64,000 nucleotides of DNA, taken from NCBI GenBank assembly GCA_937892945.1, contig CALBIL010000073.1, positions 1,470-65,469 of the forward strand, read 5' to 3'. Both the position numbers and the translations under genes were made by a program. The stretch comes from an uncultured euryarchaeote. Its GTDB lineage: Archaea; Thermoplasmatota; Poseidoniia; Poseidoniales; Poseidoniaceae. Under the pieces are notes generated by a model, which saw only the letters and a list, made by a program, of their open reading frames with translations, searched no databases and was not told where the DNA came from. Shown here piece after piece: positions 5,509-56,740 of this stretch. The first letter of the stretch is position 1. Each line of letters opens with the position of its first letter.

Positions 5509-7164
5509 CTAATTTTTGCAGCGAGCAAAATCGTCATTCAGTAAAAGCGCTTCATGATGAATAAGTAAGGGGAGCACATCTGTACCATCTGACCATTGCC
5601 CCATGGTGGTGAGCAATGGGGAATTAATCAGATGTTCATACGCCCAAGATTCAGTGATGACATCACCTCGACTACGCGCTACGACCCAATCGGCTTGTGC
5701 ATCAATTCGACGATAGATTCCCCAATCTGCAAGCGTGTCATGGACCGAATCGGTTGGGAGATAATGTGAGCCGACTAAACGAGGAAAACCATAGAGGTCA
5801 CTTTGTAATTCAATGAACAGAACATGCTCTTGAGGAAGCATAGAAAACATGGCTTGATGATGAACGCTGTAACAAGAATCGACTGACATATCATCGATAC
5901 CTTGAGCGATGTGAACCATCGTGGAATCGGGAAGACGTGACATGTTCGGTTGTAATTCGAGATGACTTGGACGGGTCCATGGTGATTCAAAATCAAGGAA
6001 GAGGGTTTCATTCCCCCATTGTCGTTCCATTGATTCATACAAACTGAGGAATACATATGCGCCTCCTAAACTGTGACCGCCAAGCCAGAGATGTGAAGGG
6101 TCAATGGTGTGATTGCCGAGAACTGCATCGATTTCAACAGTTCGGTTTTCCTGAAGAGCTACACGTTCGAGTTCATCGAATGCAGCCGCAAACGCAAGTG
6201 CTCGGTACTGATGATGTGGCCAGTTCGATGCACCGAATTGGTCAATATCGTCGAAGTCATCGGGAACTTCAGGATTGATGTGTGAAGGGTATTGAACAAA
6301 GGCTACTGCCATACCTTTCGCCGAAAGGTGAGCAATCCAATCGGTGTATTCTTCATACGTCGGATAGCCCCAACCATGCGTTAAAATGGCGAGTGGAATG
6401 GTTTGAATCTGAGAGTCTTCGGGAAGATGTGGAAGGGTTAAATAGACTGAAAACTCGATATTTTTTTCTCGGTCATCACGGATATCTTCAACCTCTTGTG
6501 GGACTGGATAGGGATGAATGGAAAGGGATGTGTCAAACGGCCCAGGGTCAGCACCGTAGCCGATGAGAGGGGCAGGCGGAGGCGATGGAGCCATTCCAAT
6601 CATTGCGGGTATTCCCGGCATGACCAACCAAGCAGCAAAGAAAACACCTGCGATATGCATCGTATGCTTTACGATTAGCAAGGGTTTACCTTCTTTTGGA
6701 AGATGAGGGAAACCACCGACCATCAATAAGATAGAAAGCAGAAGAAATCCATACAAGGTAGGAAGAAGTAGAAATGCACCTCGTAAGTAAAATTGGTCAA
6801 GAGCAAAAAAGAGTCCAATGAAACCAGCGATGAAGCCAATGAGAAGAACACCAATTGCATTGGCCCAACGCTTATTTTCGTTGCCTTTAAGTTGACGTTG
6901 GAGAACTAAAAAAGTGAGAAAGAGCAAGGCACTCATCATGAGTGTGAAGACAAAAATACTCTCTCGAAGTGACATGGTCCATTGCAATGTTCTGTAAGCG
7001 TACGGCCAAATAGCATCACTGATCTCTTTGCCAGAAAGAAAAAGATAGATCGGTTCAAAAACCGAGAGAAGAAAACCGAGAACAAAAACCAACGGGAAAA
7101 AGATTCCATGTAAATACAGTTTTTCCCAAACAGGAACGGTGGTATTTTCTTCGTCCATATCCAT
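5509..7164 (-). CDS. polytopic membrane protein with C-terminal alpha/beta-hydrolase (lipase/esterase-like) domain
   Basis: ORF 5509..7164(-) starts with ATG. The N-terminal ~200 aa contain about 6 hydrophobic helices. The C-terminal half has HGWGYPTYEEYTDWIAHLSAKGMAVAFVQYP and the nucleophile elbow GGHSLGG (GxSxG). Confidence 0.7.
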   Translation of the reverse strand: MDMDEENTTVPVWEKLYLHGIFFPLVFVLGFLLSVFEPIYLFLSGKEISDAIWPYAYRTLQWTMSLRESIFVFTLMMSALLFLTFLVLQRQLKGNENKRWANAIGVLLIGFIAGFIGLFFALDQFYLRGAFLLLPTLYGFLLLSILLMVGGFPHLPKEGKPLLIVKHTMHIAGVFFAAWLVMPGIPAMIGMAPSPPPAPLIGYGADPGPFDTSLSIHPYPVPQEVEDIRDDREKNIEFSVYLTLPHLPEDSQIQTIPLAILTHGWGYPTYEEYTDWIAHLSAKGMAVAFVQYPSHINPEVPDDFDDIDQFGASNWPHHQYRALAFAAAFDELERVALQENRTVEIDAVLGNHTIDPSHLWLGGHSLGGAYVFLSLYESMERQWGNETLFLDFESPWTRPSHLELQPNMSRLPDSTMVHIAQGIDDMSVDSCYSVHHQAMFSMLPQEHVLFIELQSDLYGFPRLVGSHYLPTDSVHDTLADWGIYRRIDAQADWVVARSRGDVITESWAYEHLINSPLLTTMGQWSDGTDVLPLLIHHEALLLNDDFARCKN

Positions 7165-11405: not shown

Positions 11406-11954
11406 ATGTTCAACATGGTAGGCACCCCTCTCGATGTACTCCCGTATGTGCGGGGAATTCAAATGGTTCTCTCCGGATACGAAGGGTACACAAAAGGTAA
11501 ACGACGGGACGCAGATCTCGCCATTCGCGAGGAGATTAAGCGCTGTGGAACTCGTGCTCGAAACCACATCATGAATGTTCATGACAGTTGTTTTCGTGAA
11601 AAAAAGATTGATATTTCAAAAACAGCAAAAGCATGTTGCAATACAATTGATATTTTGATTGAAGACATTGACAAATCTCCAACTGGAATGACGCATGCCT
11701 TCTTTTCAGGGCAACGTTCTGCATCAGTATCCGTTCTTAAAAAACTCATCAAGCATGACCATGATGTCATTGAAATGATGACAAAAGCGGTGAACATTTC
11801 AAACAGTATTGAACATGCATTTGCTTCGGACAAAACAGATGATGAAGTGAAATCCTTAATCCGGAAATGTGAACAAATGATCACGAGTTCACGTGGCTAT
11901 TACAGCGCAAGGTCAACGGTCCTTGATGGACTACGACAGAAAAAGAAGGTGTGA
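11406..11954 (+). CDS. hypothetical helical protein, translationally coupled to the downstream SPFH gene
   Basis: 182 aa with no TM segment and a charged, helical-looking composition. The stop TGA (11952..11954) overlaps the GTG at 11951 and lies 3 nt before the ATG at 11957 of the next gene. I recognise no family. Confidence 0.5.
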   Translation: MFNMVGTPLDVLPYVRGIQMVLSGYEGYTKGKRRDADLAIREEIKRCGTRARNHIMNVHDSCFREKKIDISKTAKACCNTIDILIEDIDKSPTGMTHAFFSGQRSASVSVLKKLIKHDHDVIEMMTKAVNISNSIEHAFASDKTDDEVKSLIRKCEQMITSSRGYYSARSTVLDGLRQKKKV

Positions 11955-11956
11955 GA

Positions 11957-13168
11957 ATGACAACGAATTTTAAGTGGCGAAGTAACCCAAATATTGTAGC
12001 ACGACTGGTCGATGGCAACGATATCCAGACGTGGAAATCACAACAAGTTGTGTTGAAACCAAATGAGGCATGTGCCTTCATTATCGATGGTCGAATTGGA
12101 GATATCGTTTCTGAAAAGGTTGTGAGTAACATCGGAGGTGGCCTCGGCCGTCATATCGCTGAGATGATTGGGGCAACTGCAACTGACCGACGAATGCTGT
12201 TTGCAATGACAGGACCACTTGATTTATGGATTCCTTTTTCCTCGAACCTCTCCACTGGCTCAGAAGCAACTGGCCATATGAACCTTCGAATACAATTGCG
12301 CAAAGAAGACATCCCCAAGTTGCTCAATATCTTTGCGAATCACGCACCGCTTCTTGACCGAGCGGGACTGATTGGCTTCCTAGGGCATGAGGTTATTACG
12401 CGATGTATTGTACCAGCAATGGCAAAATGCTCCAGTATTGAAGAACTGCGCAGTTCAGATTTCCAAGAGCATCTTGAAATGCATGCTGAGGTTGAAATGC
12501 GTCAAACGCTCTCAACACTTGGCTTCACCTTCTTACGTGCTTTTATTTCGACCAGTAAAACAGACCAAGAGAAACTTGCTCGACTCAAAGCAGATCTTGA
12601 CACAGCAACACAAACTGAAGGAGCAAATGCAGACGCTCTAATGGAACGTATCGCAATCCGCGAAGCCGCTACATTACGAAGAATTGAATGTGAAGTGAAT
12701 GTGGAACGTGCTAAGAAACGGGGAGAAGTCACCATACAAGCAGAAAGTGAACTCCTTGAACTCCGAAAACAAGAATCTGTGTGGGAAGCAGAACTCAAAC
12801 GAGACCATGGACAATTAGACCTTCGTATCAAAGAATCTTCACACAAAACGACACAGGCAATGGAATTGTTTGAACAAGTTCAGGCTCGAAAGCGTGACCG
12901 AGTTCAACAAAGTCAAGAACATCAGGACAAGCGTATGGATAAGCAAAACGATATCCAAACAAAAATGATGGAAATGGCAGCAGAACAAGGCGTATTAACT
13001 CCTGAAGTCATGCAAGAATTTCTACGGCAACAAACTGCACAGAAAGCCATTGATGGTAACAATTCAGCTGCACCGGCAACTCCTCCAGTGGCGGCAGTAT
13101 GCCAACAATGTCAAGCAGCCATGATGCCAGATTGGAAAGCTTGCCCGCATTGCGGCTCGTCGCGGTGA
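11957..13168 (+). CDS. SPFH/band-7-like protein with coiled coil and C-terminal zinc ribbon (COG4260 / YdjI-like)
   Basis: ORF 11951..13168 starts at GTG, with an ATG at 11957. The N-terminal domain reads VVLKPNEACAFIIDGRIGDIV...LDLWIPF...HMNLRIQLRKEDIPKLL. It is followed by a long E/K/R/Q coiled coil and a terminal CQQCQAAMMPDWKACPHCG zinc ribbon. B. subtilis YdjI has the same architecture. Confidence 0.7.
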   Translation: MTTNFKWRSNPNIVARLVDGNDIQTWKSQQVVLKPNEACAFIIDGRIGDIVSEKVVSNIGGGLGRHIAEMIGATATDRRMLFAMTGPLDLWIPFSSNLSTGSEATGHMNLRIQLRKEDIPKLLNIFANHAPLLDRAGLIGFLGHEVITRCIVPAMAKCSSIEELRSSDFQEHLEMHAEVEMRQTLSTLGFTFLRAFISTSKTDQEKLARLKADLDTATQTEGANADALMERIAIREAATLRRIECEVNVERAKKRGEVTIQAESELLELRKQESVWEAELKRDHGQLDLRIKESSHKTTQAMELFEQVQARKRDRVQQSQEHQDKRMDKQNDIQTKMMEMAAEQGVLTPEVMQEFLRQQTAQKAIDGNNSAAPATPPVAAVCQQCQAAMMPDWKACPHCGSSR

Positions 13169-13241: not shown

Positions 13242-14000
13242 ATGTTCCTAAAATGGGGATCTCAGCCGTGGATGATTTGGCGTTCACATTGGCGCAACCG
13301 GGAGATGCTAGGTGGGCGGCGTGTTACCTTTGCCATATTGACTGCAATGGCCTTGTTTGCTGCAATCCCATATACCCTCATCAACCGATTTGCATCTGTT
13401 CGAGATTGGGCTGCTTTTGACCCGACTCTTCAACTCGATATCGACATTCCATTTCTCGCATGGATGATTCTCCCGTACATGACTTTGTACTTGTATTACC
13501 CTGCGGCTGCGTGGCTTGGTAGTAAAAATGAAATCATGTGGCGGCAAAATGTAGTGTTCCATCAAATGATGCTGCTGACATGCTGGGGAGTGAATGTAAT
13601 ATTCATACTCTTACCCGTCGAAATTGACTTGCGTCATTTGATTCATGGCATTGAAGGAACCATGTGGGAACCGTTCTATGCAGCCATGCATGGAATTGAT
13701 ACCCCTTGGAACTCTTGGCCATCGCTCCATATTGTTCAAAGCATGCAAGTGGTGTTGGTCCTCAGATATTGGTATCCTCCAACGACCACACGCCTCCGAA
13801 TTACACACGCCCTACTCCTCATCATGTGGATTTTACTCGTGATATCGACCATGACCATCAAACAACACTACATCTGGGACGTCGCAACAGCAATGTTGGT
13901 GGCTGGCTTAGGTTGGGTCTATTGGATGAAACCGTGCCTTGAGCGTTTGAAGACTGATGAATTCATCGACAAGTTCGATGCTCGAATGGCACTCGATTAA
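13242..14000 (+). CDS. PAP2-superfamily (PAP2_3 / phosphotransferase-like) integral membrane protein
   Basis: 252 aa with about 6 TM segments. It carries the motifs WPSLHIVQS and TIKQHYIWDV (S-x-H ... H-x-x-D of acid-phosphatase/sphingomyelin-synthase-like enzymes). An alternative start exists at Met22. Confidence 0.6.
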   Translation: MFLKWGSQPWMIWRSHWRNREMLGGRRVTFAILTAMALFAAIPYTLINRFASVRDWAAFDPTLQLDIDIPFLAWMILPYMTLYLYYPAAAWLGSKNEIMWRQNVVFHQMMLLTCWGVNVIFILLPVEIDLRHLIHGIEGTMWEPFYAAMHGIDTPWNSWPSLHIVQSMQVVLVLRYWYPPTTTRLRITHALLLIMWILLVISTMTIKQHYIWDVATAMLVAGLGWVYWMKPCLERLKTDEFIDKFDARMALD

Positions 14001-15607
14001 CCGAAAACCAAACTGACCAAATCTGGCCGAGTGAGATAAATGCTCAGGCTTATTCCTGCCATAATCATCATCCAAGAACCAATGAGCTTGATCATGCCTG
14101 TCGCACGCTTGAGGAAATTAATCATGACTTGTCGGCCTAAGCCGACCATAGTGGTGACAATGACCATGAGAATCAATAAACCGACCATCAATCCACTCAC
14201 TCCGATTCCGATTGCCATTGGACCCAGTGTACTGAGATAAATGACAAATGGAAGTACGGCAGCGGCGGTACAATCAATGGATGCAGCGGCATAACCAATT
14301 CCATAGAGATACATGTTTCGGCGTGGAGTAAACGTATCATCTTCTTCTGTCGTGCTGTATTTCCGAACAAACTTGTCCACGAATCCCATAAGATGCGAAG
14401 TGATGCCGATGAGCATCATCGAACCTAAAACAATCAACAGCAGTGCGATGAAAATCGCAATGTAATGAACGAGGCCGGATTTGGTAAACGCCTCACCCAT
14501 CAGAATTGCAATGATTCCAATGATGGCAAAGAACGTCCACATACCCACACCTGAAAGAAGTCCGATTACCAAGGAACTTGGCATTTTCTTTTTCAGTTGC
14601 CCAGATTCAATCAGTTCGTCTTCTCGGGCACCCAATGAGAGATAGTACGAAATGAAACCGGGTAGAACGGGGAAAGCACATGGTGAAAAATAGACCAAAA
14701 TAGACAAGACCATTCCGAGAAGGAAAACGGCCACATATGCCGTGCTTGGCTCTTCCCAAGCAAGTCGTGATGAAGTAAGGTCGAGAAGAACCTCTTCTGA
14801 GGTATTGACCGATAATAAATCTGCTAATTTTCCATCAAAACTTGACCATTGGTCGACAGGTGTACCTGTCGATTGCTTCTCGATGATGTAGCCTTCTTCA
14901 TCAAGAATGAGAACGACTGGGATTTGCCCTGTGCCTCCAGTGGTAAACAAGCGGACGGGGTCAGTTGTCGAACCATCTTCGAGAATAGCGGCAGAAGTAG
15001 AACCGAATCCAGTGGGATAAAGCGGCACGTGGTAGGAACCTGATGAGATATTGAGATAGGCAAGGTCTTCATTATACCAGGCACCGTATGCAAATATCTT
15101 CAATGATTTATTCGAAGCATTAGCCATGGCTTGCCAGTCATCCATGTTTTCTTCAATATGTTCTTGGACAGCATGGCAATTGCTACAATCATGTGCCATG
15201 AGATCAAGGATAATAATCGAGCCACGATGCTCTTCGAGATGAATCCAGCCCGTGTCGTTGGAAACATTTGACTCAATTCCCGTACGGTTAAGCGATTCGA
15301 ACACGATATTCGGGATTGGTGCAGGTTCAGCATCCGATGCAAAAATCTCATCCATACTGTCAAACATTGAGAGTGCGGCAAACGAAATGGTCACAAACAT
15401 CAGTGCTGCGATAGCGAAAGCCTTCCAAGTTTCAGCTTGTTTGAAGACATTAAAATCAGACTGCTCGTAAAGGCTCAATCCAACTGCCTTGACTGAACTC
15501 CCAGCCTTTCCAATGAACCCCATACCTCTACGACCAATCCCCCACATCACTTGAACATAATGGGGTGGACTGGTCAGTACATCTGTGAAAGAGTTCAATT
15601 CCTTCAC
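13997..15607 (-). CDS. thioredoxin-like domain fused to a CcdA/DsbD-type transmembrane thiol:disulfide electron transporter
   Basis: ORF 13997..15607(-). The track start is GTG and the first ATG is at 15547. After one TM helix comes a CxxC thioredoxin-like region (LDLMAHDCSNCHAVQEHI). Then comes a CcdA core (VYFSPCAFPVLPGFISYYLS ... AAASIDCTAAAVLPFV) with conserved Cys in TM helices. Confidence 0.8.
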   Translation of the reverse strand: MKELNSFTDVLTSPPHYVQVMWGIGRRGMGFIGKAGSSVKAVGLSLYEQSDFNVFKQAETWKAFAIAALMFVTISFAALSMFDSMDEIFASDAEPAPIPNIVFESLNRTGIESNVSNDTGWIHLEEHRGSIIILDLMAHDCSNCHAVQEHIEENMDDWQAMANASNKSLKIFAYGAWYNEDLAYLNISSGSYHVPLYPTGFGSTSAAILEDGSTTDPVRLFTTGGTGQIPVVLILDEEGYIIEKQSTGTPVDQWSSFDGKLADLLSVNTSEEVLLDLTSSRLAWEEPSTAYVAVFLLGMVLSILVYFSPCAFPVLPGFISYYLSLGAREDELIESGQLKKKMPSSLVIGLLSGVGMWTFFAIIGIIAILMGEAFTKSGLVHYIAIFIALLLIVLGSMMLIGITSHLMGFVDKFVRKYSTTEEDDTFTPRRNMYLYGIGYAAASIDCTAAAVLPFVIYLSTLGPMAIGIGVSGLMVGLLILMVIVTTMVGLGRQVMINFLKRATGMIKLIGSWMMIMAGISLSIYLTRPDLVSLVFG

Positions 15608-33739: not shown

Positions 33740-35070
33740 TGGCGAGGAAACCTGACAGTATATATCGAGCCTTTGACCGTAAGGCTTCAGCCATTGTCGA
33801 ATTCACCCTCCGTCAATACCGTACCAAGAAATCCACTTGGGTTGTACTTGGTGTTGGATTTATAGCATTAGCATTAATATTTTTAATCTATATTGATGTG
33901 ATGAGTTCTGAATTTGAATCGATTGATAATGATGGAGATTCTACCGATTATGATAATGATGGATACCCAAGGGGTCAAGAGATTCGTTTAGGCACTGACC
34001 CTTGGGATAGTGAATCTCACCCAGGATTATTTGACACTCCAATTGAACCTGAACCCGCATCGATGTATATCAATGAAGATGATTTTGACTGGGACATTAC
34101 ATCCAAACTCGGAACCCAAACAACAGGCATCGATGATGATGGTGACTGTTTGAACTCAAACAAAACGAGTTCACAAAAAGATACCAATAACAACGGCATA
34201 CCATGTGACATTATTGTCGAATATTTTAAGTCTTCAGATGGCAATGTGTACACCTTTGTTTCCGCAGACTCTGGCGTTGATGAAGACCCTGATGAAGATG
34301 CATATTCACGTGAAGCTATTCACTTGGCATTTGTACTGTCTATCGGGAAATTAGGTTTTGTACTCCTTCTAGGAATATTCTTGCCCTTGTTCATGGCTAC
34401 GGGTCTCATACGTGATGAGATGACATCGGGCACAATGCATTTTATGCTCGCAAAACCAATTGCTCGTTCCGAAGTTTTTCTTTACCGTACATTGGGATAC
34501 CTCGGCATCGTTTGGCCATATGTGATCGTTCTTGGAATCCTCGGAGCTCTTATTTCGGGTTTTGTAGGTTCAGGAGATGCTTTCTTCCGATTCGCAGACC
34601 TCGGCGTTTGGCTCGCCATTATTTTTGCAACAATGATGGCAACACTCGTGTACGGGATGTTATTCAATGCACTTGGAGTTCTATGGAAATACGGAATTAT
34701 TCTTGCCATACCATTTGCAGCATGGGAATTGGGTATGGCCTTGCTTTCAATGGGTGCACCAGATGCTTTTTTACTGAGGTTTTCGGTCATCGGATGGGCA
34801 CTAATGATTGTTGATTCTGCTGCAATGTTAGTTTGGCCAAATATCGATTTGTTCATCCTCATGGGCAACTGGGGCGGTGGTGGAGATGGGGGATGGAGTT
34901 TTGATTCTTCACTCGAAGGTTCCGCACCGCTCGATTTCTTTTCATCAAAGCCTGGCCTCGGCCTTTCACCGTTCTTAGGCGCCATAATTGCCACGTTGGT
35001 CTTGATGTTCCAAGCCGTACTATTCTGGTTTATTGGCGGAGCATTGTTCAAGGGTAAGGAGATTCAATAA
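33739..35070 (+). CDS. ABC-2-type permease-like membrane protein with a large Asp-rich extracytoplasmic loop
   Basis: The ATG at 33739 overlaps the upstream TGA (TGATG). One TM helix is followed by a ~135-aa D/N/G-rich loop (DNDGDSTDYDNDGYPRGQEIRLGTDPWDSES, DDDGDCLN, NNNGIPCD, VDEDPDEDAY) and then about 6 TM helices. Confidence 0.65.
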   Translation: MARKPDSIYRAFDRKASAIVEFTLRQYRTKKSTWVVLGVGFIALALIFLIYIDVMSSEFESIDNDGDSTDYDNDGYPRGQEIRLGTDPWDSESHPGLFDTPIEPEPASMYINEDDFDWDITSKLGTQTTGIDDDGDCLNSNKTSSQKDTNNNGIPCDIIVEYFKSSDGNVYTFVSADSGVDEDPDEDAYSREAIHLAFVLSIGKLGFVLLLGIFLPLFMATGLIRDEMTSGTMHFMLAKPIARSEVFLYRTLGYLGIVWPYVIVLGILGALISGFVGSGDAFFRFADLGVWLAIIFATMMATLVYGMLFNALGVLWKYGIILAIPFAAWELGMALLSMGAPDAFLLRFSVIGWALMIVDSAAMLVWPNIDLFILMGNWGGGGDGGWSFDSSLEGSAPLDFFSSKPGLGLSPFLGAIIATLVLMFQAVLFWFIGGALFKGKEIQ

Positions 35071-36272
35071 TGCCCGAGATGACGAAGTTCGCTGGAGACC
35101 TTTCCAAACTTTGGACGCTTCAAGAACGCCCACCTCTCAACCACCTCACATGGGATTGGTGGTGGTGGTTAGTCATGCTTGATGACCCGGATGGACGACC
35201 GAGTGGTCGCCAACTGATGGTACTCTGGTCGACCAAAGATAACGCTCTGGTTGAGGTCAATGGAATGCCATGGACGCCAGAAGGAAGACCGGGATTTGAT
35301 GCTGAAAAGGCAATGGCATTGGACGGGATGGTATGCGCATGGTGGTTCGATGGAAAGCAAATGCACGAACCTGTTATTCAGCAAATCTGCCGCATTATTT
35401 CACTTCCAGATACCCATTCGAGTTGGCCGAACAAGTCACCCCATTCAGGTCAAGGAGGTGGGGCAGTCGTACCACTTTTGAAAGAAGACCTTTCAATGGG
35501 ACTGATGAGTGATTTGAGTTCCTTTTGGATTCAATTAACGACTGATGAAGATGCGTCTCATCCTCAGGTTCCCAAAAAATTCGACTTGCAACTCACCCCT
35601 TGGAATTCTGCATTATCCACTGCTCGTCAAGCAAGTGCAAGTTATGCCGCAAATATGGGATATGATATTCTGCGATTGCATGGGACTCGAGTCCATGGGA
35701 AATTAGATGATGAAGAAGTTTCAGGAACGGCTTATTTCCAAAAAGTATGCGTTCAAGCCCCTTCTGTCCCTTGGTATTGGGGCATGCTCCACCTCAATGA
35801 TGGAACATACATCGATTGGTTTCTCCCGCATGTATCCTTTACAATCAGTGCGCGTGACAATCGACCTTGGAAACGTCGCGATACCGGTCACCTCGGACTC
35901 TCACAGGGTGGTTTATTCCATGACCCGATCAACAAACGAACTGAACGTTTTACCAAAGTAATTGTGCGGAAAATGGCATCGGAATTAACCGAGGGCGACC
36001 ACGGTCAAACTCCTGGAGCACCTCTACCTCTCTTTGAAATTAAAATGTGGAATGGGCGTACAATTATCGAACTTCGAGTACAGGCGATTGAGCGGGCGCA
36101 TTGGACCTTCAATCAACCAACGCGTGGTGGCTTGAAATCCCATCTCACCTACAATGAATATCCTCTGGAAATGAAATATCTCCGCATCCAGGATGAATTC
36201 GGAACTCGTAAAGAATCCGATTATGAATGGGCAAGAGGAAATGCAGAACATTCATGGGGATTATTGCACTAA
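35070..36272 (+). CDS. AttH/CrtC (hydroxyneurosporene synthase)-like / tocopherol-cyclase-like beta-barrel protein
   Basis: The ATG overlaps the upstream TAA (TAATG at 35068..35072). The N-terminal HLTWDWWWWLVMLDDPDGRPSGRQLMVLW resembles the eWWY..g.l.d.dG...g.q.tfF opening of AttH/CrtC proteins. GTAYFQKVCVQAPSVPWYWGMLHLNDG resembles the G.aY.EKNWG...P..W.W core of tocopherol cyclases. I see no signal peptide. The assignment rests on motif memory only. Confidence 0.5.
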   Translation: MPEMTKFAGDLSKLWTLQERPPLNHLTWDWWWWLVMLDDPDGRPSGRQLMVLWSTKDNALVEVNGMPWTPEGRPGFDAEKAMALDGMVCAWWFDGKQMHEPVIQQICRIISLPDTHSSWPNKSPHSGQGGGAVVPLLKEDLSMGLMSDLSSFWIQLTTDEDASHPQVPKKFDLQLTPWNSALSTARQASASYAANMGYDILRLHGTRVHGKLDDEEVSGTAYFQKVCVQAPSVPWYWGMLHLNDGTYIDWFLPHVSFTISARDNRPWKRRDTGHLGLSQGGLFHDPINKRTERFTKVIVRKMASELTEGDHGQTPGAPLPLFEIKMWNGRTIIELRVQAIERAHWTFNQPTRGGLKSHLTYNEYPLEMKYLRIQDEFGTRKESDYEWARGNAEHSWGLLH

Positions 36273-40685: not shown

Positions 40686-41300
40686 TCACTCGGCTTCGAG
40701 TGAATTGACGACTGAAAGCAATTCTTCATCACCATCAGCGATTTCTTCTACAAAGTTTGAATCTTCATAGTAATATTTCATCTCATGACCTTCAAAGGGG
40801 TTGACTCCATCTTCTAACTGGCACAAGAGGCGCCAGCGAGGCGCCCATGAAAGGTGAACATACATTGGACCTGGAAGCAACAATAAGAACATGTAAAGAG
40901 ATGACGGCACCTCGAACATCCCCGTATGCGAAATCGTCAACAATCCAAATCCAACAAATGGCATTGGATAGAGGAGTATACGTGGAGGTGTCACTGGGAA
41001 GCGCTTTGAGAGGCTCACAATCACCAAAGAGATCATTCCCAAAAGAAGACAAGCAACCATAATCAAAGATGAATGAAAAAGCCAATTTGTAAACCAACTC
41101 TCTGAGGCTTGGGCAAATCGGTAAGGAAGTAACAATGCAAGTGATACTAAGAGTCCGTAAAATGCAGAGATATTCGACGGATGGGAAAGCCAAAGTGGCA
41201 ATTGAGTAAATCTCCGTGAAAGGGAAGTCCCCAAAAGCGTTTCACGCTCTTTTGGATTGAGCGCCTCAAGGTGACCTTGCCATCGCACTGAAGATTCCAC
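40686..41300 (-). CDS. hypothetical membrane protein with acidic C-terminus
   Basis: ORF 40686..41300(-) starts with GTG and has no early ATG. It has about 4 hydrophobic segments and an acidic tail (EEIADGDEELLSVVNSLEAE). Confidence 0.45.
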   Translation of the reverse strand: MESSVRWQGHLEALNPKERETLLGTSLSRRFTQLPLWLSHPSNISAFYGLLVSLALLLPYRFAQASESWFTNWLFHSSLIMVACLLLGMISLVIVSLSKRFPVTPPRILLYPMPFVGFGLLTISHTGMFEVPSSLYMFLLLLPGPMYVHLSWAPRWRLLCQLEDGVNPFEGHEMKYYYEDSNFVEEIADGDEELLSVVNSLEAE

Positions 41301-41354: not shown

Positions 41355-42008
41355 TCACTGTTCTCCACGCAGTTTTTGGAACAAACCCTCGGGTTCGATT
41401 TCAATGGAGTCCTGTTCTTCAAGCCACGAACGTTCAAGCAAGCCTGAATCGAGATGTTCTCGTTCACGAGCGGATTCAATCAAATCTTCATCTCCGTTTA
41501 CTGCGTCACGTAAAGCGATGGCTTGATTGATGAGCATCACATAACGCTTGAGCGTTGGATGGGTTTCATGTAAGGAACTGAAATGGCCGATTACCCCATA
41601 GGTCTCATCATCCCGAATGAGCAAGGAACCCCCAAGTAATTCATCAACTGTCAATCGTACTCTTCCTTCACCAACATTACCCCAAGTGCCGTCAGAAAAT
41701 TTCACCATGACAAGTGCAGCACCAAGTTCGAGGTCACCCATGAATGGATGATTCAGATTGACTGCTAATGGCACACGAAGTAAGGGTGAGTTCTGGTAGA
41801 TGAAAAACGCGCCAAAACTACCGAGGAAGAAAACCAGTAGAGTTGCGAAAAGACCGCCATTGAGAGTGAAAAGAAAAAAAAGTAATCCTGCAATGAAGAG
41901 TTCATACACTGCCAAAACACCAAGAAACTTGTAGAGGAATGGGCGCGCAACTTCCAAGGAATTGAAGCGACGCATTTCGACTGACAATTCACCTCGCACC
42001 TCGCCCAT
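41355..42008 (-). CDS. hypothetical membrane protein (2 TM helices plus a soluble C-terminal domain)
   Basis: ATG start. It has two long hydrophobic helices (FLGVLAVYELFIAGLLFFLFTL, LFATLLVFFLGSFGAFFIY) followed by a ~130-aa soluble region. I recognise no family. Confidence 0.5.
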   Translation of the reverse strand: MGEVRGELSVEMRRFNSLEVARPFLYKFLGVLAVYELFIAGLLFFLFTLNGGLFATLLVFFLGSFGAFFIYQNSPLLRVPLAVNLNHPFMGDLELGAALVMVKFSDGTWGNVGEGRVRLTVDELLGGSLLIRDDETYGVIGHFSSLHETHPTLKRYVMLINQAIALRDAVNGDEDLIESAREREHLDSGLLERSWLEEQDSIEIEPEGLFQKLRGEQ

Positions 42009-42177: not shown

Positions 42178-44172
42178 ATGGTCGAACTGCCGCAAGGAGA
42201 TGTTACAGAAGTACGGCGTGGTGGACCTGAATCTCTGCGCATATTGTCGATGGATATGGCTCGATTAGGCACCTCTGGTTACATCAGAATCGAACGCCGA
42301 CCAAAGGAACAAATGCCTCGTATTGGACTCATTGTATTCCGTGAAGGCAAACCGATGCTAGCGTTGCATGAAGCAGATGCAATCACCATGTCTCTTGAAG
42401 CGCTACTGGATATTGAAAGTGATGCTGCACTCGTTGATGCTTTACTGGCCATTCACGAACTGCCTGTGACTGACCTCAACCAGATTCTCAACCTCCACCC
42501 CGAAGCACACTTCCAGATGGATGAACAAAAACAACAAACCGATGGAGACCATCAATGGTGGTCGAAATCGAAATTGAGAACAAGCAGTTGGAGGCGGCAA
42601 GAACGCTTACCCGAACTTGAGGTCGTGAACGAGGCCCCAGAAGCAATACGACAACGGACCAAGGCACTCATGCAACGCTTTGATGGCGTCGAGAAAATGT
42701 TGCGGCCAGGAGATGCATATTTCTTCGACTCAAAGAATCCTGCACCAATGTTTGACCTTGCTGGCCACTTAGCGGTCCATGGCCGCCCACTGTTTGTACT
42801 GGCACGGCATGACATCGAAGCACTCAACGTTGAACACAATATTCCGATCGCCTCCAGCTCATGGTTGTCACAAAATGGCGATGTACGCTCGACGGAACCT
42901 ACATTGGAGAATATCCGTCGAAAAATAGATGCGTTTCTTTGGGAGAATCTCCGGGCAGTTGTTGTCCTTGAAGGCGTTGAGTACCTTGCAAGTATCCACG
43001 GAGATGAACGCGTCGTCAATTTCCTACGCGACATTGTCGATGGAGTACGCCTTGAGGACCATTTGTTTTTGGCAACAGGAGATTTCAATGCATTCCCATT
43101 GACCACGCGTCAGCATTTGTCACGTTACATGACTGACCTTGAGCCATCTGTTCTTGAGCATTGGAACCTCGAACCAGAACTTATACTCGACCACCCACTT
43201 TGTGCACCAGCAAGCGAAGAAGAGCGCCAATGGATTGAGCAGCAATTACAACTGGCAATTTCACCTTCTGAATCCGGCACAATCCCGCCACAATCTACGG
43301 TCTTTGGAACGATGGAAGGCGGACTGGAAACTCCAGATTCTGAAGATGTACAAGCCGCAACAGAATCGCTGAGCACTGTTGCTCAAGAATGGGCGACTCC
43401 TGCAGCACACCATTCGGAAGGCATCGGAGTCGGCAATGGACGTGAGTCCATGGAACCGTTGAGCCAGACAAATCAAGTTGAGGCTACATACCACACAAAG
43501 GCCATTGTAAATCACAACGAATCGAATGAATCGTTGGAACCGGGCCTTGAACCAACTTCGGGCACGCCAACTTCCGAACCAATCGAATCAACGGACACGC
43601 CCCTCGCAGATGAAAAGCCCACCGTCATCCAACCGCGGAAAGCACAACGGATGTCACGGCGCAGTAAAGCAAATACTACCCGGACAATCCCTCGTAATCA
43701 ACAAGGTATTCAAGCCGCTGCGGCAAATGCCCATGATGCAAAAGAACTGATCGACATTGAAAAGGTGAACAGAACCTCGCCAAACTCCTTTTCGGATTCT
43801 CTGGAAGATTATGATGATCGTCAAAAGAAAGCAGTCGAAAGCATGCGTGTGAAATCTTCTGCCAAGAGTGATTCATCGCTCAATGACGCAACACGTCAAC
43901 GTATCAATCGTCAAGAACTCAATCTACCCGAAACTGCATTTGCAAAACGACCTCTTGAGGCAATAAAAGGACGCCAACCAATCAATACGCAGACGAGACT
44001 CACCCCCTTACTGACCCGACCAGGCGTAACACATTCATCGCAACCAAAAGAGGCTATACGTGAATCCGCTGCACGACAACAAACGGAATCTCCGATTGAA
44101 ATGAAACTCAGTGTTTGGGAAGTAGAAGACAGAGAACGTTTGAGAAGAGAATTGGAAGGTGCTAAGAAATGA
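42178..44172 (+). CDS. DUF835-type protein with DUF4388-like N-terminal module and a ~330-aa low-complexity tail
   Basis: 664 aa. The N-terminus reads SGYIRIERR....IGLIVFREGKPMLALHE...SLEALLDI. The central part (about nt 42700..43152) reads LRPGDAYFFDS...RPLFVLARHD...LRAVVVLEGVEYLASIHGDERVVNFLRDIVDGVRLEDHLFLATGDFNAF, following the DUF835 pattern (vvlldglEYLi..ngf..vl.fl..l.d). The remainder is S/T/E/Q/P-rich. Confidence 0.65.
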   Translation: MVELPQGDVTEVRRGGPESLRILSMDMARLGTSGYIRIERRPKEQMPRIGLIVFREGKPMLALHEADAITMSLEALLDIESDAALVDALLAIHELPVTDLNQILNLHPEAHFQMDEQKQQTDGDHQWWSKSKLRTSSWRRQERLPELEVVNEAPEAIRQRTKALMQRFDGVEKMLRPGDAYFFDSKNPAPMFDLAGHLAVHGRPLFVLARHDIEALNVEHNIPIASSSWLSQNGDVRSTEPTLENIRRKIDAFLWENLRAVVVLEGVEYLASIHGDERVVNFLRDIVDGVRLEDHLFLATGDFNAFPLTTRQHLSRYMTDLEPSVLEHWNLEPELILDHPLCAPASEEERQWIEQQLQLAISPSESGTIPPQSTVFGTMEGGLETPDSEDVQAATESLSTVAQEWATPAAHHSEGIGVGNGRESMEPLSQTNQVEATYHTKAIVNHNESNESLEPGLEPTSGTPTSEPIESTDTPLADEKPTVIQPRKAQRMSRRSKANTTRTIPRNQQGIQAAAANAHDAKELIDIEKVNRTSPNSFSDSLEDYDDRQKKAVESMRVKSSAKSDSSLNDATRQRINRQELNLPETAFAKRPLEAIKGRQPINTQTRLTPLLTRPGVTHSSQPKEAIRESAARQQTESPIEMKLSVWEVEDRERLRRELEGAKK

Positions 44173-46202
44173 ACGCCCGACGTGAAAAACTGGCTTTGGC
44201 ATTGAAGTTGGCAAAGCAGCAACTCAATGAAACCGGTACTGGGCTCCACAAAGTCACTGTTCAATCGAACAAAAACTCACAACCCTCTCTCTCGAAAATG
44301 AATCGGTTAATTGGCAAACAGGACGTTCAAGATCAACGCCAAGGAACACTTCTGCAACGGACCGGTATTGTCGAGCGGCCGACATTCGATGTCGTTGCGG
44401 ACAAAGTACTCGGGAAAGAAAGTAAGCGCAGAAGGCCCGCACTTGACCTTACCACAAATGGAGATTCTCTCGCAGATATCGCTGCTCGGCGCATACGTTC
44501 TTTGCGACAGCGAACCTATGAGCAAATTGAACAAGGTACTGAAGAAACTGAAGACGGTTATTTTGGAATGGAAGAGGATGGACGCCCAGTTTGGGAACGT
44601 ATTCTCGACGACCAACGAGGACGTTTGACAGTGACCCTACCACCCGAATTAGCGCCTGTTGATTCAAATTCACCGTTCCACCATGAGGTCGTGGTCCCCA
44701 CCGAAGGGGTTTGGCCCCCACGTTTGCGACCAGAAATCCGCATGAGTTTCAAGCAATGGTTCATCACAGATGAAAACTTTCGCGCTACCCAAGCTGCGGA
44801 AGCTGTTGTTGATTCACCAGGAGGTACACTCAATCCATTGATGTTCGTTGGCCCTTCTGAAACTGGACGCTCGCATCTTCTTCATGCAACTGCACAGGCA
44901 GTCCTGCGTCGTCAAGAAGGGAATGTATACCTCCTTTCAACTGCTGATTTATCCGGCCTTGAACGCTTACCCGATGGTTGGCAAGATACACTGGTGAATG
45001 CAAGGTTACTTGCGATTGACGACCTTCATGAGCATGCGCAAAAACCAGAACTGGCCCATGAACTTGGAACGATGCTTGATTATGCACTCAACATGGGTGT
45101 TCATGTCCTTCTCTCTTCCAATTCGGAACCAGACGATTGGCCAGCATCGCGCTTGTGGGAGTTAACTCGTCATGCTGCTTCAGTTCACCTTGAAACTCCA
45201 AAATCTGCAAGCATGGTCTTGTATGCTCGGAACTTAGCTCAAAAGAAGGGCTTCATGATGGATGATGGACAACTCACAAGCATTGTATTACAAGATACAA
45301 TTGGATGGCGAGCGACCAAAGCAAACTTCGATTTAGTCGCCCTCGCCCTTCAGTCTGGCCAGAGCGTTCTCGACGGTGATGATGTGACTGCATTGCTTTC
45401 AAACCAAATGAATCTCCGAGAACAGATGGTCCCTGATGTGCGTGAAAATGTCGAAGAGATTGCAGCCCGTTTGGTTACTTCTGCAGTTGATACCATTTAC
45501 AGTGACACCGTACATGGAGGTATTGACCTGTATTCTGAACTTCCTGAAATTGGAGACGACTTGTATCAACCTCCTGAAATTGATACCCAAGCACTCACCG
45601 AAGATTCCGATGCACGCCATGCCGCTTATCTCAAAATAGCGCTCGAAGATACTGAACCTGCTGCGTCTTCGGTTCTCGCCTTACATGAGCGGGAAGACCA
45701 CCTTATTACGCGTAAAGGCCACATTGAGGAGCGAGACCATGGGCTTGCTGCTGACCTACTCACAGAGTTAGATCAAGCATTTGATTCACAAATACATTCT
45801 TTTGAAACTGATATGCGTCAAAGTTCCCTTCAACTCGCTCAGATTGAAGCAAAATTGGTCAACATGGCTGACAGAACACCAGAGGCATCACTGGATGAAT
45901 TGATTTTGATTGCCGATGAATTACGGGCACTGGAAGAGAACCTCATCGAAGTTGACCCTGAGCACGAGCCTTGGCCAAAGATGGAATCGGAAACCCCTTC
46001 AAAGAAAAAGCGTAAAGTTGGTCGCCGAAAATCAACTCCACCTGTGGAACCTTTGGAAAGTCATGAACCTAAAGGTGAATGGAACATTGATGCCAAAGAT
46101 GTCGACATGTCCGACTTACTTGAAGCTGGAGAAAAACCTCGAAAAATACGACTCGGACGAATCAATTCCCACGAAAAAATCCTCCGAGGTGAGGAGAAAT
46201 GA
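44169..46202 (+). CDS. DnaA/Hda-like AAA+ domain protein with degenerate Walker A, flanked by low-complexity/coiled-coil arms
   Basis: 677 aa. The ATG overlaps the upstream stop (ATGA). Residues ~192-400 track DnaA domain III: SFKQWFITDENFRATQAAEAVVDSPGGTLNPLMFVGPSETGRSHLLHA, LLAIDDLH, and ELGTMLDYALNMGVHVLLSSNSEP...RL.ELTRHAASVHLETP. The Walker A reads GPSETGRS (K to R, T to S). There is no DnaA domain IV. Confidence 0.7.
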   Translation: MNARREKLALALKLAKQQLNETGTGLHKVTVQSNKNSQPSLSKMNRLIGKQDVQDQRQGTLLQRTGIVERPTFDVVADKVLGKESKRRRPALDLTTNGDSLADIAARRIRSLRQRTYEQIEQGTEETEDGYFGMEEDGRPVWERILDDQRGRLTVTLPPELAPVDSNSPFHHEVVVPTEGVWPPRLRPEIRMSFKQWFITDENFRATQAAEAVVDSPGGTLNPLMFVGPSETGRSHLLHATAQAVLRRQEGNVYLLSTADLSGLERLPDGWQDTLVNARLLAIDDLHEHAQKPELAHELGTMLDYALNMGVHVLLSSNSEPDDWPASRLWELTRHAASVHLETPKSASMVLYARNLAQKKGFMMDDGQLTSIVLQDTIGWRATKANFDLVALALQSGQSVLDGDDVTALLSNQMNLREQMVPDVRENVEEIAARLVTSAVDTIYSDTVHGGIDLYSELPEIGDDLYQPPEIDTQALTEDSDARHAAYLKIALEDTEPAASSVLALHEREDHLITRKGHIEERDHGLAADLLTELDQAFDSQIHSFETDMRQSSLQLAQIEAKLVNMADRTPEASLDELILIADELRALEENLIEVDPEHEPWPKMESETPSKKKRKVGRRKSTPPVEPLESHEPKGEWNIDAKDVDMSDLLEAGEKPRKIRLGRINSHEKILRGEEK

Positions 46203-55096: not shown

Positions 55097-55247
55097 TTGA
55101 TTCATCCACTGAAATCAACTCATCCCAAGACATCATGTCAGTCATTCAGTTTGTGCTCAATCTCGAATTTGGATGAGAATAAAATGAAAGCATAAGAATC
55201 CATCAACTTGGGATTCTCGAATCACTCGCTCAAAGCGAATGATAAGG

Positions 55248-55320
55248 AGCCTGCGGAGGGACTCGAACCCCCGGCCTTCGGATTACAAATCCGATGCACT
55301 ACCAGCTATGCTACACAGGC
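55248..55320 (-). tRNA. tRNA-Thr (anticodon TGT)
   Basis: Folded by hand from the reverse complement GCCTGTGTAGCATAGCTGGTAGTGCATCGGATTTGTAATCCGAAGGCCGGGGGTTCGAGTCCCTCCGCAGGC(T). It has a 7-bp acceptor stem (one G-U), the anticodon stem TCGGA/TCCGA with loop TTTGTAA, and a T arm with GTTCGAGTC. There is no intron and no encoded CCA. Confidence 0.9.
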
Positions 55321-55453
55321 GACGAACTGTCCCACACACTTACCCTTGATGAATGAAACGGATAGAATGCAAGGGAATTCTGTGATTCAAAGCCGCGAAA
55401 AAAGGAACGAATCAAAGAGACAAGTCAAAGAACAGTGCCGTATTCGGAGAGGC

Positions 55454-56740
55454 ATGAACCCTGATGCTGGTGCTGGATTACTCAACTCCTATGCACAGAC
55501 AAAGGTCGGAAATGATACCATTTTTGGGTGGTGGGGGCGTTATCAAAAAGCCATCGCAGAAGGTATTGATGCAGTCAATGGAACGATTGGTGCATTACTC
55601 GAAGACGATGGCTCTCTCGCCATTAACCAAGTCGTCGATGAAGCCATTCGAATTGCACCGGCTGTTGAAATCGCCGCCTATGCACCTTTGAAGGGACTCC
55701 CTGCATTTCTTGATTTAGCAAAGACATTAGCGCTTGGAGAACATCGAGAACCCCTCGCCGAACTCGGAATTTCGATGACGGCCACTGCCACACCGGGTGG
55801 CTCGGGTGCACTGTACCTTGCTGCAGCAAATTTCGCTAATAGAGGAGATAAAGTATTGCTCCGTGACCGATATTGGGGACCCTACAAAGGTTTTTTGTCC
55901 GGTTGTGACCTTGGTATCGAAACGTATCCACTCTTGCCTTCAACGCCAAATGAAGTGCATCCATTTGTCGATGTTGAAGGGTTTCGAAGCCAACTCGCCT
56001 CACTCTGTTCTTCACAGGACAAAGTGATGATTTGGTTAAACGATCCTGCACATAATCCAACCGGCCTCTCATTGACTCCCGAAGGGCGTATGGCTTTTTT
56101 AGAAGCGGTCATGGAAAGTGCCTCTTCCAACGAGCATGTCGGGCACACATTGCTTATCGATTCTGCATATCATTTGTATGCAGAAGACCCACATGGCTGG
56201 GGACAAACAGTACGTGAAACAATTGAAGAAGGCTGGCCTTGGACCGAAAACTTACTGATTACATTCGCTGTATCTCTCTCGAAATCACATACAATCTATG
56301 GGTTACGTACCGGTGCTTTGGTGAGCATTCATCCTGACGCAGAAGTCATTGAAAAGATTGGAACAGTGATGGGCGTCACTGGCCGGCAAACTTGGTCTGC
56401 AGCACCAAGAATTGCACAGTACACCATCAGTGAAATGCATTCATCTTCCGAAGGTGGAGATGCGTGGGGCAAAGAACGGGACCGATTGAAGTCTCTCCTT
56501 GTAACCCGTCGAGACCTCTTCAAGGAATGGTGTGAAAAACTCAATGTCCCAATCAATCCAACGCATGATGGGTTTTTTGCTTGGCTCGAACATGACGACC
56601 CTGAAACAGTTGCTGAAAAATGTGCGCAACAGAATGTGTTTCTCGTACCCCTAACTGGTGGCGTACGAATCGGATTATGTGCAGTTCCTTTGGGACACAT
56701 ACCTCGTGTCGCCGAGGCCTTGGCTCAGGCACTTAAGTGA
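55454..56740 (+). CDS. class I aminotransferase (aspartate/aromatic AspC-TyrB-like)
   Basis: ORF 55208..56740 overlaps tRNA-Thr at its 5' end. The internal ATG at 55454 is preceded by GGAGAGG. It reads VNGTIGALLEDDGS...YAPLKGLP.F......L....ATATPGGSGALYLAA...YWGPY...NDPAHNPTG....SLSKSHTIYGLRTGAL, which is an AspC-like layout. Confidence 0.85.
   Translation: MNPDAGAGLLNSYAQTKVGNDTIFGWWGRYQKAIAEGIDAVNGTIGALLEDDGSLAINQVVDEAIRIAPAVEIAAYAPLKGLPAFLDLAKTLALGEHREPLAELGISMTATATPGGSGALYLAAANFANRGDKVLLRDRYWGPYKGFLSGCDLGIETYPLLPSTPNEVHPFVDVEGFRSQLASLCSSQDKVMIWLNDPAHNPTGLSLTPEGRMAFLEAVMESASSNEHVGHTLLIDSAYHLYAEDPHGWGQTVRETIEEGWPWTENLLITFAVSLSKSHTIYGLRTGALVSIHPDAEVIEKIGTVMGVTGRQTWSAAPRIAQYTISEMHSSSEGGDAWGKERDRLKSLLVTRRDLFKEWCEKLNVPINPTHDGFFAWLEHDDPETVAEKCAQQNVFLVPLTGGVRIGLCAVPLGHIPRVAEALAQALK

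Follow-up and report, generated by a model that had tools for sequence, protein, structure and literature searches.

A DnaA-type AAA+ protein lacking domain IV is encoded next to an inactivated KaiC-like protein in Poseidoniales

Results

A DnaA-type AAA+ module in an archaeal protein without domain IV

We analyzed a 64,000-nucleotide stretch of archaeal DNA (contig CALBIL010000073.1 of assembly GCA_937892945.1, positions 1,470 to 65,469; hereafter, the window) and found that the gene at 44169 to 46202 (+) encodes a complete DnaA-like AAA+ protein of 677 residues, in which a module of the DnaA type spans residues ~191 to 414. Directly upstream lies the gene for a DUF835 protein, an inactivated relative of KaiC and RecA. 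We give about even odds to a model in which the proteins encoded by both genes assemble into a complex, peculiar to this archaeal lineage, that acts as a switch or scaffold and is for the most part non-catalytic. An earlier reading of the DNA letters (the original prediction) had recognized a DnaA-family module in an archaeal context, with the Walker A Lys/Thr replaced and domain IV absent, and had suggested a nucleotide-binding-impaired, Hda-like adaptor rather than an initiator. That such a module is present in an archaeon is borne out by the Pfam, PDB profile, and Foldseek searches, all of which favor DnaA, and by the Poseidoniales loci that carry the gene.

The peptide quoted in the original prediction matches residues 192 to 400 (nucleotides 44742 to 45368) exactly. 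In Pfam, residues 191 to 322 matched Bac_DnaA (PF00308) at 43.1 bits (gathering cutoff, 23; E = 6.5e-11), and this match is precomputed in all listed database homologs except the partial protein P0066. Among NCBIfam models, the window protein scored 48 bits for DnaA (TIGR00362; equivalog cutoff, 343.9) and 47.5 bits for Hda (TIGR03420; equivalog cutoff, 194.8), with much weaker scores for IstB (17.6 bits; cutoff, 200) and DnaC (11.5 bits; cutoff, 357), the latter two at E values of 0.0025 to 0.16. Less diverged relatives favored DnaA over Hda (96 versus 60 bits): the best relative reached 96 bits for DnaA, and no relative exceeded 59.8 bits for Hda, always under its own DnaA score.

Searches beyond the family models agreed with this ranking. 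A profile built from 21 family members and run against all PDB sequences found Bacillus subtilis DnaA at E = 3e-13 across both base and lid, followed by DnaC (0.004) and Hda (0.04). In an AlphaFold2 model built on 55 homologs, residues ~190 to 410 were confident (predicted local distance difference test [pLDDT], ~85), and their best Foldseek match was DnaA domain III (8bv3; template modeling [TM] score, 0.78; E = 1e-12). The structural matches ran, in order, from DnaA domain III (8bv3 and 2z4r, TM 0.78) to Hda and then to RuvB and RFC. Orc1/Cdc6 was represented by no PDB chain at E ≤ 1 in the profile search, by no family among the Pfam matches at E ≤ 1, and by none of the top 50 Foldseek matches. 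The comparison of Hda, DnaA, DnaC, and IstB profiles that had been proposed as a check therefore places DnaA first, and the DnaA assignment of the module is far above chance.

The module comprises an alpha/beta base of the DnaA type (residues 191 to 345; 44739 to 45203 [+]), delimited by PF00308, the alignment to B. subtilis DnaA, the confident model, and Foldseek, and a lid domain (residues 346 to 414; 45204 to 45410 [+]), which aligns with the DnaA lid at NIRELEGAL and carries a sensor-2-like W380 and R381. The beta2-beta3 insertion, at the place of the initiator-specific motif (ISM), falls ~6 residues short of its B. subtilis DnaA counterpart and is modeled as two short helices, 258 to 261 and 271 to 275. 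Other DnaA domains were sought on both sides of the module. Residues 1 to 191 had no match to DnaA_N (PF11638, domain I) or to any other Pfam family at E ≤ 10, and the C-terminal 266 residues had no match to Bac_DnaA_C (PF08299, the helix-turn-helix [HTH] of domain IV) even at E ≤ 10. Outside the AAA+ part, the family profile matched no PDB sequence, and AlphaFold2 modeled the C-terminal part as long helices, coiled coil, and disorder, with no HTH. The claimed absence of the DNA-binding domain IV is thus confirmed. With domain IV absent and the Walker A Lys replaced, it is very unlikely that the protein is a DnaA-type initiator, as the original prediction had argued.

The Walker A lysine varies within an otherwise retained nucleotide pocket

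The Walker A motif, or P-loop, lies at 44850 to 44873 (+) and reads ggc cct tct gaa act gga cgc tcg, or GPSETGRS (G228-PSET-G233-R234-S235), so that Arg (cgc) stands in place of the catalytic Lys (cgc tcg, 44868 to 44873). S235, which follows the Arg, is the canonical residue of GK[ST], and the Lys is the sole substitution; the original statement that Lys/Thr was replaced holds for the Lys and is overstated for the second residue.

We tallied this site in the 49 sequences with a readable P-loop, consisting of the window and 48 species loci. Lys was present in 20, Arg in 18, Cys in 10, and Thr in 1; the wider family mostly has GK[ST]. In a neighbor-joining tree, Lys occupies the deep clades and one inner clade, and Arg occupies clades that include the window. 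Within the Arg clade we found an apparent Arg-to-Lys reversal (L006) and an Arg-to-Cys change (L001). In the Cys clade, erosion extends to the first P-loop Gly and to the Ser/Thr of sensor-1, and the protein and its operon are kept. The codons at site 234 form a one-step path from Lys (AAA/AAG) through Arg (AGA/AGG, then CGN) to Cys (TGY), and five Arg codons are in use (AGA, AGG, CGA, CGC, and CGT). Because the Arg is clade-wide and written with five different codons, it is an old, fixed state, and sequencing error at R234 is ruled out. The original prediction had allowed that relatives with a normal GK[ST] P-loop would mark this copy as a sequencing variant; distant orthologs do have GK[ST], and the second half of that argument fails on the clade-wide Arg.

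The rest of the ATPase site was inspected at the positions originally proposed, namely, Walker B, sensor-1, and the arginine finger. G233 and the Walker B residues D284 and D285 (LLAIDD; 45018 to 45023 [+]) are invariant across the family. A box VII-like helix, S327-RLWELT-R334 (45147 to 45170 [+]), was located by a gapless hidden Markov model alignment to B. subtilis DnaA; within it, R328, which aligns with Escherichia coli DnaA R281, is Arg in all orthologs but three, which have Lys. W380 and R381 occupy the sensor-2 position in the DnaA alignment and are at least 90% conserved; R381 corresponds to E. coli DnaA R334. The arginine-finger position, which we equate with E. coli DnaA R285 (four residues past R281) and Hda R153, is L332 here and is Leu, Val, or Ile, and Met once, in all 44 Poseidoniales orthologs tabulated. 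Sensor-1 Ser/Thr is lost in the Cys clade. No other quarter of the protein is as well conserved as the AAA+ base, whether in the Lys, the Arg, or the Cys group. On this pattern of conservation, the catalytic lysine is expendable and the fold is under selection.

Walker A Lys-to-Arg replacement abolishes hydrolysis in most P-loop NTPases, and the RecA K72R and Rad51 Lys-to-Arg mutants bind ATP and do not hydrolyze it. Because the window protein retains the rest of the pocket (G228, G233, S235, D284, D285, and R381), the replacement here, by analogy, more likely impairs hydrolysis than binding. The original description of the protein as impaired in nucleotide binding would accordingly be right as to the missing Lys and less so as to the step affected, which is probably hydrolysis.

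The same pocket can be read as that of an active AAA+ ATPase in which Arg234 stands in for Lys, perhaps with R334 as a trans-acting finger, and which serves as a remodeler or loader with the DUF835 protein as its substrate adaptor. The intact residues just listed and the conservation of R334 would suit such an enzyme, and the persistence of Arg through synonymous change among five codons suggests that it is selected rather than merely tolerated. We nevertheless consider an active ATPase quite unlikely, both on general knowledge of Lys-to-Arg replacements and because the sister clade with Cys or Thr, in which the first P-loop Gly and sensor-1 are eroded, still keeps the protein and the operon. 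The latter observation indicates that hydrolysis is not essential to the function of the family.

The upstream partner is a P-loop-less KaiC/RecA-like protein

The partner gene (42178 to 44172 [+]) encodes 664 residues comprising an N-terminal alpha/beta domain, DUF835, and a long disordered region. DUF835 (PF05763) was matched at 36.4 bits (cutoff, 33.1). In an AlphaFold2 model of residues 1 to 420, the DUF835 core was confident (pLDDT, 80 to 90), and its fold best matched FlaH/ArlH (top), RecA, KaiC-CI, and Rad51/DMC1. No GxxxxGK[ST] motif follows the first core strand (residues 180 to 184), and we conclude that the partner is a P-loop-less, inactivated KaiC/RecA-like protein. In the classification of Galperin et al. 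(2018, PMC5847659), DUF835 is an inactivated KaiC domain (iKaiC), and archaeal response regulators use it for output.

The N-terminal alpha/beta domain of the partner (~110 residues) gave a subthreshold Pfam match to DUF2226 (E = 0.09) in 1 of 17 members and, in a PDB profile search, only matches at E ~0.5 to the MshEN domains of PilF. The sequence pattern, together with the PatA_N neighbors of a bacterial tandem family described below, had suggested a PATAN/DUF4388 identity; this was rejected at a profile-profile probability of 0.4%, at the sensitivity used. The C-terminal ~245 residues (43438 to 44172) are long, of low complexity, and apparently disordered. They contain islands conserved across the order, consisting of a basic patch (GPRKAxRIRRxKK-like), an RExASxxQ motif, and a WE..ED..RL end.

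A DUF835 gene, encoding ~560 to 840 residues, lies upstream on the same strand in every locus that reaches that region, and the stop and start of the two genes usually overlap. In the window, this translational-coupling junction (44160 to 44172 [+]) is an ATGA stop/start overlap with a Shine-Dalgarno-like GGAAGGTG ~8 nt upstream, the DNA reading ...ggaaggtgctaagaaATGA... In four distant relatives of ~25 to 30% identity (P0088, P0237, P0096, and P0101), the DUF835 and DnaA-like genes are likewise adjacent, in that order, and codirectional, and they overlap in three of the four.

To compare evolutionary rates across the neighborhood free of the phylogenetic signal that its genes share, pairwise distances were placed on ranks, the mean of the other eight neighbor genes was removed, and a quadratic fit was applied. 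The distances of the DnaA-like and DUF835 proteins correlated at r = 0.78, the highest of 45 neighborhood gene pairs (next highest, 0.51), and an equally fast membrane-protein neighbor was negatively correlated with both. As supporting evidence only, this points to coevolution of the two proteins.

A core gene of Poseidoniales in a fixed neighborhood

To determine how broadly the gene is distributed, we scanned one genome per GTDB species by pattern search and tblastn and found orthologs at 50 loci, which come from metagenome-assembled genomes. The record titles give Candidatus Poseidoniales, Poseidoniaceae, or, under older names, Euryarchaeota or Methanobacteriota archaeon in nearly every case, and the original Marine Group II (MG-II) assembly CM001443, where the gene lies at ~1.52 Mb, is among them. 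The window itself carries archaeal-type genes, including an archaeosine TGT with a PUA domain, a CTP-dependent riboflavin kinase, and ThiN. We assign the host to Poseidoniales (MG-II). A protein database yielded 71 relatives, nearly all full length, down to 36% identity, and a HMMER scan of 1.84 billion representatives yielded relatives of ~580 to 840 residues with the same layout and ~28 to 45% identity in the AAA+ core. Because 50 species-level Poseidoniales genomes share one conserved neighborhood, the family is a vertically inherited core gene of the order. Beyond Poseidoniales, it occurs only in uncultured marine archaea that are closely related and syntenic; the sources of P0088, P0096, and P0101 are tentatively placed near Poseidoniales on their shared synteny only.

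One contig among the loci (L039, CALDQY010000035.1) is titled "uncultured Rhodobiaceae bacterium" and contains the complete archaeal block from the DUF835 and DnaA-like genes to citrate synthase; mis-binning of a Poseidoniales contig is almost certainly the explanation. A 14.3-kb ENA metagenome contig (P0001) encodes a 792-residue version of the protein that is 100% identical to the window copy with an exact, in-frame tandem duplication of residues 218 to 332 (P-loop to box VII), which is either an assembly artifact or a strain variant whose ATPase core is duplicated.

The syntenic order across Poseidoniales runs from an aminotransferase gene through two divergent membrane-protein genes, DUF835, the DnaA-like gene, a CxxCxxCC gene, citrate synthase, GDPD, and PAP2 to TatC. 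The CxxCxxCC gene (PF03692; 46199 to 46666 [+]) adjoins the DnaA-like gene in nearly all loci (no match was found in L029) and is coupled to it in the window by a second ATGA overlap. It is inverted in the most distant relatives, and the DUF835-DnaA-like pair is intact even where this gene is flipped. Replication genes turned up neither in the 64-kb window nor in the syntenic loci, which extend over ~22 kb, no transposase or repeats were found near the gene, and PADLOC returned no meaningful defense match, on which basis a defense system was rejected.

These data bear on whether the gene is a decaying relic or pseudogene, or an IstB/DnaC-type helper ATPase of a mobile element without a host function. 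Such an origin would account for the degenerate Walker A motif, the weak IstB and DnaC matches noted above, and the fast evolution of the protein (mean p-distance among the loci compared, 0.57). It is nonetheless highly improbable: about 50 species have an intact, full-length open reading frame (ORF), 70 columns are invariant in an alignment of 55 sequences (A2), and conserved motifs extend over the whole protein; the chromosomal neighborhood is fixed and free of transposases, repeats, and PADLOC matches; and DnaA models far outscore those of IstB and DnaC.

MG-II archaea have Cdc6/Orc1 (Raymann et al. 2014, PMC3914693), in agreement with the archaeal Orc1/Cdc6 background assumed in the original prediction, and the DnaA-like protein is for this reason an addition to the archaeal initiator rather than its replacement. 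The closest outgroup is bacterial DnaA, against which a profile of less diverged members scores 120 to 139 bits. Profile scores had a median of 113 bits for true DnaA, in a sample biased to the top matches, and were 80 to 95 bits for the bacterial tandem family; these values are too close to each other, and we therefore make no phylogenetic claim on the donor lineage. Judging from sequence similarity and distribution, the module was most likely acquired horizontally from bacteria at the root of the lineage.

Public annotations label the protein a "hypothetical protein" (NCBI) or, automatically, a "chromosomal replication initiation ATPase DnaA" (JGI, via COG0593). No description of the family was found in the searchable literature, which covers few subscription journals. 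In its architecture, host domain, and partner, it is apparently a distinct and undescribed family within the DnaA AAA+ clade.

Elsewhere in the window, the two divergent membrane-protein genes (40686 to 41300 [−] and 41355 to 42008 [−]; 204 and 217 residues) have no Pfam match. They diverge from the DUF835 operon and are found at this place in nearly all Poseidoniales loci extending so far upstream, and apparently also in distant relatives. The listed TTG start of an aminotransferase ORF (55208 to 56740 [+]) overlaps an opposite-strand tRNA-Thr gene (55246 to 55320 [−]); its Pfam match begins only at residue 127, and the true start is probably well downstream. Four further ORFs of 400 to 551 residues had no Pfam match at E ≤ 1e-4 (5509 to 7164 [−], 11951 to 13168 [+], 13997 to 15607 [−], and 35070 to 36272 [+]).

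The terminal regions and a possible role in replication

The N-terminal region (residues 1 to 190; 44169 to 44738 [+]) begins with an amphipathic helix, followed by short conserved motifs between variable linkers. These motifs (SKxNxLxGK, LLQRxGxxxRPT, DGxPVW..VL..QR, and WPxxL) are invariant columns in A2 and in a second alignment, A1 (21 sequences, 81 invariant columns), and are modeled with low pLDDT. On the other side of the module, a C-terminal helical region (residues 428 to 595; 45450 to 45953 [+]) without Pfam or PDB similarity contains a conserved VDxxYSD..GGI..Y.PP motif and a long helical hairpin or coiled coil, modeled as helices 428 to 440, 473 to 495, and 506 to 595 with pLDDT up to ~88. 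A disordered tail (residues 596 to 677; 45954 to 46199 [+]) was delimited by pLDDT below 50, alignment A1, and a tabulation of tails. It carries a basic patch (KKKRKVGRRK), an acidic and aromatic motif (LxSHEPxGEWNID..DLL), and an acidic C terminus. These flanking regions look like interaction surfaces rather than enzymatic or HTH domains.

The C terminus is GEEE in most orthologs and GEEK in the window copy. Within positions 46160 to 46202 of the window, the last four codons, ggt gag gag aaa, double as the strong Shine-Dalgarno GAGGTGAGGAG of the CxxCxxCC gene, so that the same nucleotides encode a conserved tail of the protein and serve as the ribosome-binding site of the next gene. GEEE is also kept where more than 100 nt separate it from the start of the downstream gene. 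This rules out that GEEE is a mere by-product of the downstream Shine-Dalgarno and identifies it as a protein-level motif.

We asked whether the protein could be an Hda-like or DnaA-like regulator of replication, that is, a bacterial module retooled to act on Orc1/Cdc6, MCM, or PCNA, or one that binds DNA through its basic patch. All of its closest known relatives act in replication (DnaA, Hda, then DnaC/IstB), the tails of both the DnaA-like and DUF835 proteins contain KR-rich patches, and gyrase is an example of the other genes for DNA handling that MG-II archaea acquired from bacteria (Raymann et al. 2014, PMC3914693). The details of the protein fit this role poorly. The arginine finger central to Hda and DnaA is absent, as are an HTH and domain IV; no conserved PCNA-interacting protein (PIP) box or beta-clamp motif (QL[SD]LF-like) was found in 45 orthologs, which also rules out a clamp-binding adaptor; and the DnaA position that contacts single-stranded DNA, E. 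coli R245, aligns with nonconserved residues. In addition, the catalytic Lys is freely replaced, and the surveyed neighborhoods contain no replication gene. We therefore regard a replication regulator as possible but unlikely.

The more specific Hda-like adaptor of the original prediction is not supported. The arginine-finger position of the protein is hydrophobic, the family has no conserved clamp motif, the protein is 677 residues long, and its less diverged relatives score higher for DnaA than for Hda. Hda acts on DnaA-ATP, and we know of no archaeon that encodes DnaA; this reading also fails because its substrate is not expected in an archaeon.

Discussion

Together, these results are consistent with the DnaA-like and DUF835 proteins acting as a two-component switch or scaffold. 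Under this model, a DnaA AAA+ module would have entered from bacteria at the root of the lineage without domains I and IV, which were either lost or never received. Around the module, the family gained N- and C-terminal regions that carry short linear motifs and a coiled coil as well as a basic patch and an acidic tail. The gene is cotranscribed and translationally coupled with the DUF835 gene, and the two products would form a complex. The AAA+ core would be a switch or scaffold for assembly, gated by nucleotide or, in some lineages, independent of it, and would neither work as a motor nor open an origin. The Arg form found in the window, having an otherwise intact pocket, is predicted by analogy to bind ATP with little or no hydrolysis, a "locked" state, and without a canonical arginine finger it would not stimulate hydrolysis in a neighboring protomer as DnaA and Hda do. 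A selected fold, an expendable lysine, and the lack of a canonical trans-acting Arg together are the mark of an assembly element, whether nucleotide-binding or purely structural, rather than an ATP-burning machine.

Several observations weigh against a switch or scaffold. R334, two residues past the arginine-finger position, is conserved and could be a substitute finger, and the basic patches of both proteins could bind DNA, which would be compatible with a role in replication or in the chromosome. Nearly the whole neighborhood is syntenic across the order, so adjacency of the two genes within Poseidoniales is weak evidence for their association. The rate covariation uses nonindependent pairwise distances, and both proteins evolve fast. 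The models of the N- and C-terminal regions are of low confidence. What the data show directly is the homology of the protein, its architecture and conservation, the operon structure, and the variability of the lysine site; complex formation, nucleotide behavior, and horizontal transfer are inferred from these.

A more far-reaching idea is that the captured DnaA module and its KaiC-like partner form a lineage-specific device for cell-cycle or replication control that operates beside the native Orc1/Cdc6, with clades frozen in different nucleotide states (Lys, Arg, or Cys). We think this doubtful; if true, it would amount to a hybrid bacterial-archaeal circuit for the control of initiation in one of the most abundant archaeal groups of the surface ocean.

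In textbooks, an initiator of the DnaA type marks the bacterial replication lineage, and one of the Orc1/Cdc6 type marks the archaeal-eukaryotic lineage. Here, highly abundant planktonic archaea have a DnaA-clade module as a core gene across their class, and it appears to be wired to an inactive KaiC-like protein, which suggests that the DnaA ATPase fold is reusable outside initiation. The family also offers a natural experiment in the evolution of pseudo-ATPases, in which the catalytic position varies among Lys, Arg, Cys, and Thr and the rest is constrained. The automatic "DnaA" label (COG0593) is misleading and could yield wrong inferences on MG-II replication.

Comparison with known systems

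The module shares the base-and-lid fold of bacterial DnaA domain III (B. subtilis 8bv3 and 8btg; Aquifex aeolicus 2hcb and 3r8f) and is collinear with it motif for motif, including the Walker A frame, the Walker B "DD," the box VII Arg, and the sensor-2 Arg. Unlike DnaA, the archaeal protein has no domain I, linker domain II, or domain IV HTH; Leu replaces the arginine finger, the Walker A Lys is labile, and the insertion is shorter by ~6 residues. It has instead ~190 N-terminal and ~260 C-terminal residues specific to the family, and its host is an archaeon with Orc1/Cdc6.

Hda (HdaA) resembles the archaeal protein as a DnaA-type AAA+ module without a DNA-binding domain, with a similar score for the window protein and the second-best structural match (3sc3 and 3bos). 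However, Hda has ~230 residues, an N-terminal beta-clamp motif, and an arginine finger on which its function depends, whereas the 677-residue archaeal protein is without both features. Conversely, Hda is not known to have the R281-equivalent arginine that the archaeal family keeps. DnaC and IstB belong to the same initiator/loader AAA+ clade and are far less similar than DnaA; unlike them, the archaeal gene is found in a fixed housekeeping neighborhood, with neither a mobile-element context nor a DnaB-type helicase partner.

The pairing of ArlH (FlaH) with ArlI offers an analogy only, in that a KaiC/RecA-like protein is paired with a second oligomeric ATPase. The two systems differ in that ArlH binds ATP; ArlI is a secretion-type ATPase and not a AAA+ protein; the second components share no homology; and the DUF835-DnaA-like locus has no archaellum context.

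An uncharacterized bacterial family of ~650 residues (P0241, P0072, P0106, and others) has DnaA-type modules that also lack domain IV and occur in a clearly non-replicative setting. Its modules score about 80 to 120 bits each against the archaeal profile, comparable to true DnaA. This family differs in having two modules per protein, both with canonical GK[ST] (L057, 8001 to 9974; L058, 317 to 2305; also P0106, P0113, and others), and in having no DUF835 neighbor; its genes sit with those for CheA, CheW, CheR, CheB, CheD, and CheC, PatA_N-TPR proteins, and a Roadblock/LC7 protein. The bacterial tandem family shows that there is an independent precedent for the non-replicative recruitment of DnaA-type AAA+ modules.

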